A stretch of 64,000 nucleotides of DNA. Source: Candidatus Micrarchaeota archaeon. GTDB taxonomy: Archaea > Iainarchaeota > Iainarchaeia > Iainarchaeales > JAGVWC01. This document shows, one piece after another, positions 353-42,730 of the stretch (position 1 is the first letter of the stretch; every line of letters starts with the position of its first letter). The stretch is taken from NCBI GenBank assembly GCA_043803815.1, contig JAZDJR010000018.1, forward strand, positions 55,730 through 119,729, given 5' to 3'. The notes under the pieces are model-generated. The model saw nothing but the letters and a program-made list of their open reading frames with translations. It searched no databases and was not told the DNA's origin. The translations under genes and the position numbers were made by a program.

Positions 353-1033
353 ATGCCGCCAAAATCTGCTACGCACGTTTGGAAGTCAGTTGCTGACGTG
401 AAACGGGTTTGGTTTGTTCGCAAACAGGGCAAAGAAGTTACGTTAAATCAAGGCGGAGAAGCCCGAATCATTTTGGGAAGGGTGCTGTTTAAAGACGGCA
501 AAAGGCACCCTATCGCCATTAAATATTTTCACACCCCGATAAAAGATTCGGTCGCAGAAAGGTATACTGAGGTTATAGAAAAATTGCGCGCGGCCAAGGT
601 GCGAACGGCAAAAATGGCAATGATGAAAATTCCAACCGAACGCTCGCCCAATGGCGAGTGGGTTCAAATATCCGAAGCGTTCGGTTCTAATTTTAATAAA
701 ATAAAACTAAATCCCGCATTATGGGGCGATCTTCAAACTATTCAACAAAAAACAGCCGCCATGACAGAACTGTGTAAGATAGCAAAAGCCGGATTGTATC
801 CCGCAATCGATGCGATTGAAGGAATCCAAGGTAAAAACGAAGCAATAGTTGTCGATATAGGGAGTTTAATTAAATTGCGAACACCCGCAAGATGCGCTCA
901 AGGGCTGTTTTTTGCGATTTCAATGATGACCGCAGACATTCACGAGCGCAGCCAATTAATTCAATATGTAAGCCAGTCCATTAGAACTAATCCGGAATTA
1001 TTTGAACCATGGAAAACATTAATAGCAAAATAG
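353..1033 (+). CDS. Orphan protein with degenerate protein-kinase-like fold, inserted between dnaK and dnaJ
   Basis: LNQGGEARI (Gly-loop-like), IAIKYF (VAIK-like), EVIEKLRAAKVRT (resembles Bud32 EVNLLHKAKAAGVRT), IVVDIG (DFG-like); no canonical HxD. Confidence 0.6.
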   Translation: MPPKSATHVWKSVADVKRVWFVRKQGKEVTLNQGGEARIILGRVLFKDGKRHPIAIKYFHTPIKDSVAERYTEVIEKLRAAKVRTAKMAMMKIPTERSPNGEWVQISEAFGSNFNKIKLNPALWGDLQTIQQKTAAMTELCKIAKAGLYPAIDAIEGIQGKNEAIVVDIGSLIKLRTPARCAQGLFFAISMMTADIHERSQLIQYVSQSIRTNPELFEPWKTLIAK

Positions 1034-26371: not shown

Positions 26372-26552
26372 CTGAAAACCAGAAAATGCTTTGTCAAAAA
26401 ATAATTTCGCGAAGCGAATTTTCTTTTTTCCCGAAGGGCTTTTTTCGCAAACATTTTCCCAAAAGGTTTTCCGAGGTTCCCGTTTTTGCCAAAGGCAAAA
26501 AGGGCCCATTCAAGCGCGCTTGAATCGGGTTTCTTTTGCGAAAAGAAAAAAC
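26372..26552. other. Intergenic cluster of tandem hairpins (structured RNA or REP-like element)
   Basis: TTTTTGCC-AAA-GGCAAAAA (26483-26501), perfect palindrome ATTCAAGCGCGCTTGAAT (26508-26525), TTTCTTTT-GCG-AAAAGAAA (26530-26548). Confidence 0.5.
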
Positions 26553-27218
26553 TCACTTTTTGCTCCAGTTTTCTATTTCGCGCAGCATGGCGATTTCGTT
26601 TTTGGATTCTTCGAGCTGTTTTTGCAGGCTGGTCACGTTTTTTTGGCTTTGTTCGAGGCGGAATTTTTTTTGTTCGTCCGCGAGCTTTGCAACGCGCGGG
26701 TTGTCCTTGTAAACAATGCTGGTGGAAACGGTTTCGGTCAATTGTTTTCGGTATTCCAAGTCGTTGACAAAAGTATTAATCATGGGATGGTATTTGGGGT
26801 GCGAAACGAGGTGCACGGGAAGTTTTACCGCGTCGGCGTCTTTGCGGTAATCGGGATCGGTGAGGTATTTTTGGGTGTGCTGCCAGTATAATTTGTCGCC
26901 GAATTTTTTGACGTTGTTGGTGACATCCGACAGCTGCGCGGTGCGGTGCTGGCCTTTCCAGTCGTTGACGCGGCGTTCAATGTCGGTTTTTTGCTTTTCC
27001 AGTTTTTGGATTTCTTTGCGAAGCTTTAGCTTGGTGGGATAAATTACTTCGGGCCAGGCTCCGTTGGTTGGAATGCCTGCCAAGGAAATCACACCGCCGC
27101 GCTCAAAATAGCGCTTTATATGCTGTACACGATTGGAATCCTTGTTTTTTTCAACGAGTTCGCCGAATTTGGCGCTAAAGGATTCAAAGGAAGAAAAAAC
27201 GAGTTCTTTGTTTTGCAT
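26553..27218 (-). CDS. Hypothetical coiled-coil-rich protein
   Basis: 221 aa ORF with host-like codon use and two heptad-rich segments. Confidence 0.75.
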   Translation of the reverse strand: MQNKELVFSSFESFSAKFGELVEKNKDSNRVQHIKRYFERGGVISLAGIPTNGAWPEVIYPTKLKLRKEIQKLEKQKTDIERRVNDWKGQHRTAQLSDVTNNVKKFGDKLYWQHTQKYLTDPDYRKDADAVKLPVHLVSHPKYHPMINTFVNDLEYRKQLTETVSTSIVYKDNPRVAKLADEQKKFRLEQSQKNVTSLQKQLEESKNEIAMLREIENWSKK

Positions 27219-39680: not shown

Positions 39681-39824
39681 CCCATTTTTGCGGCAGCTGA
39701 AAATTATTTTTTTGCCAATTGCCTTCCACTTTTAAAATTATTAGAGAATAGACCGGCTTAAAAAAATTATTTTTGGTTTTTGCCGAACAAAAACCGAAAC
39801 GAATCCGAAAACGGGAAATCGCTT

Positions 39825-41720
39825 ATGGATATCCAAAAAGAAGTCGAATCAATCGTCAATACGGTCCTGCCGCCGCAAACGCAGGTGTCCAAAGTCGAAA
39901 TGGAAGGCCCCGAAGTCGCGATTTACACCAAAAATCCCGGCGCTTTTTTCGAAAACGAAAACCTGGTCGCGCGAATCGCGTTTGAACTCAAAAAACGGGT
40001 GAATATCCGGACCGACAAAAGCCTTTTGGCAGACCCCGAAGCCGCCAGGCAAAAAATACTGGAAATTGTTCCCAAAGACGCGGGCATTGTTGAAATCATG
40101 TTCAACACCCCGTTTTCCGAAGTCATGATTGAAAGTGTGAAGCCCGGCCTGGTCATCGGAAAAGGCGGCGAAACTTCCAAGCGAATTATCATTGAAACCG
40201 GCTGGACGCCGAACATTATCCGCGCTCCGACTTCTCCCAGCGAAATTCTGAAAGGAATCCGCCATCACCAGGTCAAAAACGCCACGGAACGCAAAAAAAT
40301 CCTCCACGAAATCAGCCAAAAAATTTACCGGACCATTGAAAAAAAATCGGATTTCTGGGTGCGCTTGACCGCCCTTGGAAGCTTTCAGGAAATCGGGCGC
40401 TCGTGCATCCTGCTTGAAACCCCGCACTCCAAAATTTTGCTCGACTGCGGAATCAACGTCGCAGTAACCGATTCTCCCTATCCCTATCTTGATTCCGTAA
40501 ATTTTCCCTTGTCCGAACTGGACGCGGTTGTAATCAGCCACGCGCACACCGACCACTCGGGATTTTTGCCTTACCTGTTCCGCATGGGCTACCACGGGCC
40601 GGTGTACTGCACCCTGCCCACGCGCGACCTGATGACCTTATTGCAGTTTGACGCCATCGACATCTGGAGCAAAGAAGGAAAAGAGCCGATTTTCAGCGAA
40701 AAAGACGTCAAGGAAATGCTCAAGTACTGCATTGTGCGCGATTACCGCGAAGTAACGGACATCGCACCCGACATCCGCATGACCTTTCACAACGCCGCCC
40801 ACATTTTAGGCTCCGCGTCGGTTCACCTGCACATCGGCGAAGGCCAGCATAATTTGGTGTACTCCGCGGACATTAAAAACGGGTTTACCCGTTTATTCAA
40901 CAATCTGGATTTGAATTATCCCCGGCTTGAAACGCTTTTAATCGAAGGAACCTACTGCGGCAAGGACGATGTCCAGCCCGACCGCATTTTGCAGGAACAG
41001 GAACTGGTCAGTGCCATCCGCGAAACCGCCAAAATCGGCGGCAATATTTTAATCCCGGTTTTTGCCGTCGGCCGCGCACAGGAAGTCATGCTCACCCTGG
41101 AAGAAGCGTATCGCCGCGGAGAACTGGACGGAATCAAAGTGTACATCGACGGCATGACCAAGGAAGCCAGCGCAATCCACACGGCCTACCCCGAGTTTTT
41201 GCGCCGCGGCGTGCAGCGCAGGATTTTAACCAACGATTCGCCGTTTACCAGCGACTTGTTCCAGATGGTGCAGCACGGCCAGCGCGAAGAAATCCTGAGC
41301 CAAAGCGGAGTCGTCATCATGGCTTCCAGCGGAATGCTCACCGGCGGCGCGTCACTTCATTATTTCAACAAAATGGCGGCGAATGAAAAAAACCTTTTGA
41401 TTTTTGTAGGATACCAAGGGGAAGGCTCCTTGGGAAGAAAACTCCAAAACGGCGTTCAGGACATTCCGATTACCAACGACAAGGGAAAAACCGAAGCATT
41501 GCCGCTTCGCATTCGCCTGGAAAATTTGGACGGGTTTTCGGGACACTCGGATAGAGTTCAACTCGTCAATTACCTGCGCAACTTAAAACCCAAACCCAAA
41601 ATGGTTCTGGTGCATCACGGCAACAAAAACAAGGTCAACCTGTTTGCCCAATTTATCACCCAAAAATTCCAAATCCAATCCAGCGCGCCGCACAACCTGG
41701 ACTCGATTCGCCTGCGTTAG
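39825..41720 (+). CDS. fttA: KH-domain beta-CASP ribonuclease aCPSF1 / termination factor FttA
   Basis: Two KH domains, KPGLVIGKGG, LLDCG, ISHAHTDH, HNAAHILGS, FSGHSD; follows psmB. Confidence 0.96.
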   Translation: MDIQKEVESIVNTVLPPQTQVSKVEMEGPEVAIYTKNPGAFFENENLVARIAFELKKRVNIRTDKSLLADPEAARQKILEIVPKDAGIVEIMFNTPFSEVMIESVKPGLVIGKGGETSKRIIIETGWTPNIIRAPTSPSEILKGIRHHQVKNATERKKILHEISQKIYRTIEKKSDFWVRLTALGSFQEIGRSCILLETPHSKILLDCGINVAVTDSPYPYLDSVNFPLSELDAVVISHAHTDHSGFLPYLFRMGYHGPVYCTLPTRDLMTLLQFDAIDIWSKEGKEPIFSEKDVKEMLKYCIVRDYREVTDIAPDIRMTFHNAAHILGSASVHLHIGEGQHNLVYSADIKNGFTRLFNNLDLNYPRLETLLIEGTYCGKDDVQPDRILQEQELVSAIRETAKIGGNILIPVFAVGRAQEVMLTLEEAYRRGELDGIKVYIDGMTKEASAIHTAYPEFLRRGVQRRILTNDSPFTSDLFQMVQHGQREEILSQSGVVIMASSGMLTGGASLHYFNKMAANEKNLLIFVGYQGEGSLGRKLQNGVQDIPITNDKGKTEALPLRIRLENLDGFSGHSDRVQLVNYLRNLKPKPKMVLVHHGNKNKVNLFAQFITQKFQIQSSAPHNLDSIRLR

Positions 41721-41787
41721 TTTTTGGTCAAGCTTTTGCTTGCAAAAGGTTGCCGTTCACAACCTGGACTCGATACGGCTACGCTAA
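41691..41787 (+). repeat. 30-bp imperfect direct repeat of the fttA 3' end, separated by 37 nt containing a hairpin
   Basis: CACAACCTGGACTCGATTCGCCTGCGTTAG (41691-41720) vs CACAACCTGGACTCGATACGGCTACGCTAA (41758-41787); both encode HNLDSIRLR-stop. Confidence 0.9.
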
Positions 41788-42214
41788 TTCTTGGCTTTGT
41801 TTTTTCCTAAAAAAAACAACCCACCGATTCAACAGGCAAAATTAAACGCATTTTTCAGCGGTAGTTTGCCGATTGCGACTGTTTTAAACCGCGTTCTTTT
41901 CAGGGAAAGAACTTGGAATTCGCGGAGTTTTAAGGTTCACTTTGTTACAGAACAAAAAAAACCGCGATAACTATTTAAGCGGGTTTTGCAATAAACCTAT
42001 CGTCTTTTCGAGGCAAAAAAGTGACGGACGAACACTCCTTTTCGGCAAATTTAGCACAGAACCACCGCATCATTCAATTATGCGAAGCCCTAAAAAAAGG
42101 CGGAACCAAATTGTCGGACCACGAACAAGCCTGCGGAAAACAGCCCTCGAATTCCTAAATTCTCTTTTTCTTTCCAACTTGGCTGCTTTTTAATTCCAAA
42201 CGCCTGAATTGAAT

Positions 42215-42730
42215 ATGCGAATCGTAATAACCGGAACTCCCGCAACCGGCAAAACAAAACTGGCCAAAGAACTCGGAAAAAAACTGAAACTGCCGGTAAT
42301 CAACGAACTTGCGTTCTGCCAAAAAAACCATGTCGGAAAACTGAATCCCAAGACAGGCGAACGCGAAATTCCGGTTCCCGCTTTAACCCGAAAATTGAAC
42401 CGGCTGCTAAAAACAAAAACCCGCTGCATTATCGAAGGCCACGTTGTTTGCGAGTGCAAATTACGGCCGATTGATGCGGTAATCGTCATTCAAAGCCCCC
42501 TAAAAAAACTGGAAAAACGCCTCAAAAAACGCGGTTATTCGGACATCAAGATTTTGGACAATTTGTGGAGCGAAAAAAACGGGTACTGCCTGAAAAAAGC
42601 CCGCCAAAACTACCCGACGGCCTTGGTTTGGCCCCTGTCCGGTCGCAAAGCGTTTAAAACGATTTGCAAACTAATACTAGCAAAAATCAACCGATTAAAA
42701 CAAAAAAGAGGAACCCTTCGTGCAAAGTAA
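42215..42730 (+). CDS. Adenylate kinase 6/Fap7-like nucleoside kinase
   Basis: ITGTPATGKT, IIEGH, LEKRLKKRGYS..KI.DN..SE. Confidence 0.88.
   Translation: MRIVITGTPATGKTKLAKELGKKLKLPVINELAFCQKNHVGKLNPKTGEREIPVPALTRKLNRLLKTKTRCIIEGHVVCECKLRPIDAVIVIQSPLKKLEKRLKKRGYSDIKILDNLWSEKNGYCLKKARQNYPTALVWPLSGRKAFKTICKLILAKINRLKQKRGTLRAK

Follow-up and report, generated by a model that had tools for sequence, protein, structure and literature searches.

A hairpin element between two allele-like copies of the fttA gene end in an Iainarchaeota genome

Introduction

In Thermoproteales, near-identical short introns occupy different positions of different tRNA genes (Fujishima et al. 2010, in PMC4090602); such transposed introns are removed through a bulge-helix-bulge-type motif, and their gain is thought to take place at the DNA level by an unknown mechanism (PMC4090602). 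The gain of a tRNA intron, and also a tRNA fragment, have been linked to a 1.8-kb recombinase-bearing element (Sugahara et al., PMC3293823), direct repeats near intron borders have been described in a study with only four archaeal introns (Rogers and Bendich, PMC11782384), and a 2026 preprint that examined Asgard tRNAs identified no route by which introns arrive (doi 10.64898/2026.10.13.758758). Here we analyse a stretch of 64,000 nucleotides (the window) from a Candidatus Micrarchaeota archaeon of the Iainarchaeales (contig JAZDJR010000018.1, positions 55,730 to 119,729), in which the last codons of fttA are repeated downstream of the stop codon, and we describe the hairpin between the two copies as a member of a dispersed family of elements, here called E. 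Transposed tRNA introns are the closest described phenomenon, with near-identical short inserts in various tRNAs common to both. In contrast to those introns, E also lies outside RNA genes, after protein genes and with gene-end repeats of 11-41 nt; it occurs in DPANN archaea, has clear terminal inverted repeats and shows no splice motif at fttA.

Integrative elements that reconstitute their target's 3' end are familiar from tRNA and tmRNA islands, and from e14 and phage 21 in icd of Escherichia coli. Like these, E has a complete, slightly different gene end beside the insert and the displaced original behind it, with silent or allele-like differences; unlike these, it is ~35 nt long, is without integrase or att core and has dozens of targets per genome. 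Insertion with long target duplication has been described for restriction-modification units (Furuta et al. 2010, PMC2853133), which share with E the long direct target repeat, the empty site in a relative and the lack of a recombinase in the unit. Those units are kilobase-sized bacterial gene cassettes, whereas E is a hairpin, though its junctions on one contig bracket 2.6 kb. Small palindromic repeats of prokaryotes, of the MITE (miniature inverted-repeat transposable element) or REP (repetitive extragenic palindromic) type, have been reviewed (PMC3184786, PMC10969869); E resembles them in being multi-copy, protein-less, hairpin-forming, mostly intergenic, patchy and nested, and departs from them in its target repeat of 6-41 nt, in repeats that diverge like alleles and in not co-occurring with a Y1 transposase. 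Our literature search, which is not proof of absence, returned no ~35-nt element described as a tRNA intron at some sites and, at others, as a free insertion beside allele-like duplicates of gene ends.

Results

The genome (G000) is a 1.08-Mb metagenome-assembled genome (MAG) of 36 contigs, from a DPANN archaeon of Iainarchaeota/Diapherotrites type, to judge by the names of its protein homologues. Its fttA/aCPSF1 gene is an open reading frame (ORF) at 39780..41720 on the plus strand, with a likely ATG start at 39825 and a TAG stop; homologues are named beta-CASP ribonuclease aCPSF1, the Pfam domains are KH_TffA, Lactamase_B, Beta-Casp and RMMBL, and the product has a KH, metallo-beta-lactamase and beta-CASP architecture. 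The working final nine codons and stop, here called L (41691..41720, plus strand, by direct reading; 41687-41720 including the upstream GCCG), read CAC AAC CTG GAC TCG ATT CGC CTG CGT TAG and encode APHNLDSIRLR*, as in a sister species and in one further relative (G003). The second copy, R (41758..41787, plus strand), which appears as a displaced, allele-like fttA end abutting the 3' foot of E, reads CAC AAC CTG GAC TCG ATA CGG CTA CGC TAA and encodes HNLDSIRLR followed by TAA. Direct reading agrees with the original prediction that a second 30-bp copy, identical at 25 of 30 positions, lies 37 nt past the fttA stop (a period of 67 nt). The five differences it listed (ATT/ATA, CGC/CGG, CTG/CTA, CGT/CGC, TAG/TAA) are indeed all silent changes at third positions, both copies ending in HNLDSIRLR-stop, and its reading of the silent-only divergence holds in that both were shaped as coding sequence. 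The frame of R is +1 relative to fttA and extends upstream to 41752 (A-V-H-N...), reading AV where L, the sister species and G003 read AP.

The first 17 bases of L and R are identical, after which every silent site differs, which suggests, on sequence grounds, a recombination joint inside the repeat. The likeness continues for 7 nt past the stops (TTTTTGG / TTCTTGG) and, if a 2-nt indel is allowed, for 4 nt upstream (GCCG--CAC / GCCGTTCAC). Local alignments of the fttA flanks score 38-44, compared with 22-24 for the best of 200 shuffles, and a screen of the genome's 5234 ORFs showed a downstream repeat of the final residues and stop for two of them only, namely fttA and a gene for an M18 aminopeptidase. 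Exact scans of metagenome and genome collections for the repeated fttA end returned nothing.

The spacer between L and R carries E (41720..41754, plus strand; covariance models R1 and R2) in the subtype TTTTTGG-TCAAGC-TTTTGC-TT-GCAAAAG-GTTG. Its layout is a run of five T followed by an 11-bp stem (CAAGCTTTTGC-TT-GCAAAAGGTTG, 41729-41752), the fourth pair of which is a G.G mismatch conserved in the family; the hairpin core had been placed correctly at 41733-41748 in the original prediction. Members of the family are ~35-40 nt long, encode no protein and share the consensus TTTTT(CC/GG)-CARG-T-run-GC-loop-GC-A-run-(G)YTG, which among the copies of this genome becomes TTTTTCCCAGG, T-run, GC, loop, GC, A-run and then (G)CTG. 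The pattern TTTTGC-N2-8-GCAAAA occurs 26 times in the genome and ~0.7 times in shuffles. With the reservation that E-values of home-made covariance models are rough, 24 copies are found in this genome at E<1e-3, the fttA spacer matches model R1 with 30.6 bits (E 1.5e-5), and model R2, a leave-out model built from 75 copies that all come from other genomes, gives this spacer (41720-41754) its highest score in the window (24.8 bits, E about 0.002). Covariation is seen in the stem (CG/AU, AU/GC, UA/CG): 96% of cells are paired, a level that none of 500 shuffles reached.

The element is present in 66 of the 215 genomes of the phylum, with up to at least ~30 copies per genome; the three other genera of the family hold 8, 14 and 19 copies, and elsewhere in the order its occurrence is patchy. 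The exact fttA subtype (TTTTTGG-TCAAGC...GGTTG) recurs in two other genomes (G008 and G013), so TTTTTGG is part of the element and not of the target. A scan of one genome per species gave near-identical copies of this subtype at 40 MAG loci, whose labels, unchecked, are Woesearchaeota, Micrarchaeota, Parvarchaeota, Nanoarchaeia, Iainarchaeum, Methanocellales, Methanosarcinales and Methanoperedens; the viral contigs scanned hold no copy of it. Copies of E are dispersed, some of them nested, and share conserved sequence, hairpin and terminal inverted repeats. In one orientation the element presents two T-runs and in the opposite one a single T-run, and at fttA it probably serves as the T-run/hairpin 3' end signal of the transcript. 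Contig C29 makes up 7% of the genome but holds 8 of its 25 copies. A second hairpin repeat family (GGGCCCATTCGAgc..gcTCGAATCGGG, often TTTTGCC-loop-GGCAAAA) is nested in or lies beside copies of E, with sites at 26423-26560 of the window (C18:82152-82290), C18:38475, C14:45790, C17:1294-1355 and C36:10435; one such hairpin is located in the loop of an E copy.

Direct repeats are not confined to fttA. Around 12 of the 25 copies in the genome, flanking direct repeats score at least 24, a score reached at only 1.4% of 2970 random genome positions. With crude longest ORFs as gene calls for context, these repeats are copies of the neighbouring target, which may be a tRNA 3' end (C14:53897, 22 nt; C23:13437, 17/17), a tRNA 5' end (C29:62393), a gene start (C29:70689, MIEIRFHG/MLEIRFHG; C14:22174), a gene end or, at C36:9645, the stop/start overlap of two coupled genes (16/16). 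The order is constant: L joined to the working gene, a linker of 0-27 nt, the element, and R beginning 0-12 nt past its 3' foot. At some sites the repeats are perfect over 11-17 nt, and the repeat pairs across the genome (at least 12) are target-specific and have no common core. Similar repeats flank E in five other genomes (G001, G002, G003, G011 and G027) and in two MAGs of the subtype scan (L144 and L148).

These sites bear on two other accounts of the fttA locus. A MAG in 36 contigs could contain two strain versions of the fttA end that the assembler placed one after the other, and the differences between the copies do resemble strain or allele variation. The same layout, with the same element family, nevertheless occurs at about 12 sites here and in MAGs of unrelated studies, the exact shared stretch of 17 nt is below assembler k-mers, and the spacer is a bona fide family member and not a strain's downstream sequence. 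An artefact of this kind is therefore extremely improbable, and by analogy with the many independent sites the join at fttA is probably genuine.

The other account, proposed in the original prediction, is an attL/attR scar: an integrase-driven virus or plasmid would have integrated at the fttA 3' end, bringing a replacement end, and would later have been almost wholly deleted. A complete end, an insert and a displaced end are indeed the layout of elements integrated in gene or tRNA 3' ends; an identical 17-nt core is present, the genome has two tyrosine recombinase genes (C7:6896 and C29:58225), and the spot 3' of fttA differs between this genome and the sister species. However, the supposed 37-nt 'remnant' belongs, at full length, to a family with at least 24 copies, the repeat pairs of the other sites share no core, the spacer contains no ORF, no integrase lies near the site (both tyrosine recombinase genes are on other contigs), and none of the 29 relatives with a readable fttA end has an insert bounded by fttA ends. 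The scar reading is thus very improbable and already largely refuted. What survives of it is an insertion footprint in which the essential gene is still whole, its complete end before the insert and the displaced end behind it; the spacer being a complete copy of E, nothing has collapsed. The further suggestion of a recoded end that escapes a nuclease found no support.

The second case among the ORFs of the genome, the M18 aminopeptidase gene on C29, shows the same arrangement: KVFLESK-TAG is repeated 40 nt downstream as KVFLESK-TAA across an E copy, with five silent differences. In a hand-curated tally of ten protein-coding repeat pairs, taken from repeats detected at the nucleotide level, 25 codon changes are silent or preserve a start or stop, against 7 replacements, which are mostly conservative (I/L, V/I, S/T, F/Y); 25 of the 35 base differences fall at third positions. 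A neutral simulation expects 19% of changes to be silent, and none of its 20,000 trials gave so few replacements (P<5e-5). This silent excess rules out in-place decay of unused DNA as the source of the pattern and implies that one copy of each pair comes from a working gene end of another lineage; gene conversion, as a route of indirect selection on the spare copy, is rejected because silent sites are near saturation.

At fttA itself, one could still suppose that a target-site or tandem duplication arose on the spot and that the unused copy then decayed neutrally, with the silent-only pattern arising by chance. The perfect 11-17-nt repeats at other E copies do show duplication on site, and for a single site five silent changes out of five have a P of roughly 0.004-0.015. 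Against this, the silent-only pattern is repeated at the aminopeptidase end, the ten coding pairs depart from neutrality together, all five fttA differences fall in the last five of the ten third positions (1/252), and silent sites approach saturation with no change at replacement sites, which leaves in-place decay very improbable. Mutagenesis by a diversity-generating retroelement was also considered and rejected: the differences (T/A, C/G, G/A, T/C, G/A) are all silent and not confined to adenine, and no reverse transcriptase is adjacent. Counting from the inner edge of the repeat, 8 of 17 repeat pairs have two matches and then a mismatch at the third base, an excess that in several pairs falls on a silent codon position.

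For comparison, the closest available relative, a sister species, is represented by a contig pair from one sequencing run, of which 27 kb were examined (FttA 93% identical, aminopeptidase 85%). It has a single fttA end without E, and the intergenic spot is taken by an opposite-strand ORF of 112 codons, of which the window has no trace; no copy of E was found in its 27 kb. The original prediction looked to relatives for larger inserts between the copies; the sister and 28 further genomes of the order have one fttA end each and no such insert (flanks of 1.5 kb for most). The aminopeptidase gene of the sister likewise has one end and no E, and the next gene, encoding a POR subunit (MFEIRFHGR...), begins 153 nt later. 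The combination by which insertion with long target duplication is recognised, an empty site and a direct target repeat, is thus present.

In this genome the aminopeptidase and POR genes lie 3 kb apart, compared with 153 nt in the sister. The order on C29 is aminopeptidase-L, E, R, two FtsX/MacB-like permease genes, R', E, E and L'-POR, so that two inverted E/duplicate junctions bracket a 2.6-kb two-gene insert (C29:70689-73774; L162 890-3975), and E junctions may mark the borders of imported gene cassettes. At C29:70660-70790 (L162 about 860-990, minus strand), a frame of 46 codons begins at the displaced POR start (ATG CTA GAA...), crosses both E copies and ends at a TGA stop 3 nt past the real POR ATG; it is possible that this frame is a relay upstream ORF that keeps translation coupled across the insert.

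Many copies of the fttA subtype lie inside RNA genes, namely the D-loop of tRNA-Leu, other tRNAs, a C/D box small RNA (sRNA) and a structured RNA of Woesearchaeota. The tRNA-Leu insertion occupies an identical site in six MAGs and occurs in both orientations. For 14 of 20 insertions tested, two of them in this genome, ARAGORN calls the junction tRNA only after E has been deleted. Folding and hand reading of the tRNA-Leu case suggest the exon sequence GGCC paired over 4 bp with GGCU at the intron 3' end, bulges AAU and AAA, and an outer helix made of the inverted ends of the element (AACCUUUUU/AAAAAGGUU); cuts after GGCCAA and GGCUAA, which form a 6-nt target repeat, would restore the canonical D-loop AAGUCUGGCCAAA. 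Read by hand in this way, the short target repeat and the inverted ends of E would together mimic a relaxed bulge-helix-bulge. ARAGORN finds only 17 tRNAs in the genome, and several are probably hidden by E interruptions. Two tRNA genes have an internal E (C29:19791-19829 and C29:62489-62528), one of them a tRNA-Ser(GGA) by sequence reading. In the sRNA case (L127, L136 and L119; G008:C75, G013:C2 and one more MAG), the fttA-type element separates the D' box from the C' box, in the layout gATGATGA-agttaacaccta-CTGA, element, TGAAGA-aacaactaaca-CTGA.

The intron-like behaviour of E in tRNAs invites a reading in which both fttA copies are used and protein-level selection acts on both, through splicing between a point in L and the matching point in R, translational hopping across the hairpin or a +1 shift at the TAG. 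In fttA, as in the aminopeptidase gene, the first copy ends in the rare TAG and the second in TAA with a +1 offset; the +1 frame is open from the fttA TAG through E into R, and both fttA copies contain the palindrome TCGA. Yet the flanks of TCGA are not complementary, so that no bulge-helix-bulge is possible and splicing at fttA is rejected; the aminopeptidase second-copy frame meets an in-frame TAA in the hairpin loop, which excludes TAG read-through or a +1 shift as a general mechanism; the same protein would result, with no gain; and tRNA-end duplicates bear disabling changes, such as C to G in the T-loop. Use of both copies accordingly has only a very small chance of being correct. The fttA copy of E is not itself an RNA-gene interruption, because it is located after the stop codon.

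Mobilisation of E by a Y1 transposase (IS200/RAYT-type) was rejected, since the two do not co-occur across 41 genomes: PF01797 is absent from the E-rich genomes G002, G003 and G011, and five copies are present in the E-free G004. This genome encodes an IS200/IS605-type Y1 transposase of 164 aa at C21:1362-1856 (minus strand; HUH motif HCH), which has its own, different end hairpins; the 4.8-kb contig C21 also bears two E copies, 2.2 kb from the Y1 gene, and a Y1 fragment lies at the start of C8.

Downstream of R, a second A/T hairpin (TTGTTTTTT-CCTAA-AAAAAACAA, 41797..41819, plus strand, read from the sequence) is unrelated to E and not a significant family member (model R1: 8.1 bits, E 6); it is probably a terminator belonging with R. 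The original prediction described a gap of ~420 nt without a confident gene beyond R, which was overstated: a 45-codon ORF (42021..42158, plus strand; L033 10068-10205) is conserved in the sister at 51% identity, and synteny with the sister resumes there. The encoded 45-residue protein (..RI.QLC..L.KGG.K..DHE.A.GKQ) falls between fttA and an adenylate-kinase-like P-loop gene. Rfam has no family in the window at gathering level and none at E<=1 in 41600-42250, a tRNA scan of the window found none, and the spacer and the 300 nt downstream are not repeated as longer blocks in the genome. The motif (T)ATACATAA occurs one to three times in the intergenic DNA 3' of fttA in many Iainarchaeota genomes, where it is probably the TATA-box region of their promoters. 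In some relatives (G011:C36, G028:C44 and G034:C1; proteins P0053, P0080 and P0117), fttA/aCPSF1 is 1046-1142 residues long; intein/LAGLIDADG domains (PF14528, PF14890) interrupt it near residue 372 or 588.

Discussion

We consider it reasonably probable that what separates the two fttA ends is one whole copy of E, a small element with inverted repeats that is, or was until recently, mobile in Iainarchaeota and other small archaea. Its insertions at gene and tRNA ends would survive because the end that they hit is directly duplicated with them. One complete end would remain joined to the gene, here L (41691-41720), and the other would be pushed behind the element, here R (41758-41787). The proposed history has two steps. 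Element E would insert with target duplication, as the perfect 11-17-nt repeats at some sites suggest, and the filled site would then spread between diverged lineages by homologous recombination. The crossover would fall inside the duplicated gene end, because the intergenic DNA beside E is not conserved between lineages, leaving one repeat of the donor type and one of the resident type; at fttA, the outcome would be 17 identical bases followed by differences at all silent sites. We infer that such a history covers the perfect repeats, the allele-like repeats and the fttA mosaic alike.

Several observations weigh against this explanation. The non-conserved linker of 0-27 nt on the L side is unexpected for a simple cut-and-paste element, and the repeat length, which varies from 6 to 41 nt (6-7 nt at tRNA-Leu), is unlike that of a transposase with a fixed stagger; the two-step history leaves both unexplained, as it does the enzyme of the first step. 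The Y1 transposase (PF01797), the sole enzyme tested, does not track E, and no partner transposase was identified. A donor lineage carrying '...ATTCGCCTGCGTTAG + E' was not found, a metagenome scan for gene end, stop and element giving 11 chance matches and no hairpin. Mismatches over all repeat pairs are not significantly one-sided (P=0.10), and the 17+13 mosaic at fttA may be a single-case pattern. Comparison with the sister, suggested in the original prediction as a way to tell which copy matches the orthologous fttA end, gives a weak answer: at the few sites available, L is nearer to the sister than R at fttA (3 against 1 of the 5 differing third positions), and at the aminopeptidase gene, opposite to fttA and again with few sites, R is nearer than L (20/23 against 17/23).

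More tentatively, and with considerable doubt, we propose that E could be a protein-less, MITE-like DNA element whose terminal inverted repeats, together with the target duplication made on insertion, automatically build a bulge-helix-bulge that is cut by the tRNA splicing endonuclease. Insertions in RNA genes would then be harmless introns from day one, and insertions at gene ends would survive through the duplicate, which would double as a portable homology arm moving E and adjacent DNA, such as the 2.6-kb two-gene insert on C29, between diverged lineages through homologous recombination. This would offer a concrete route for the arrival of archaeal tRNA introns, a long-open question.

If the explanation by insertion and spread of E is correct, tRNA-intron gain becomes testable, since a single family occurs within tRNAs as an intron and elsewhere as a free insertion flanked by target repeats, and E interruptions would explain part of the 'missing' tRNAs in the annotation of such genomes. 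A selfish insertion in or beside an essential single-copy gene, here that of a transcription termination factor, would be costless because a complete end is kept joined to it. The allele-like spare ends would be direct traces of recombination between diverged DPANN lineages, and could serve to trace gene flow among uncultivable organisms.

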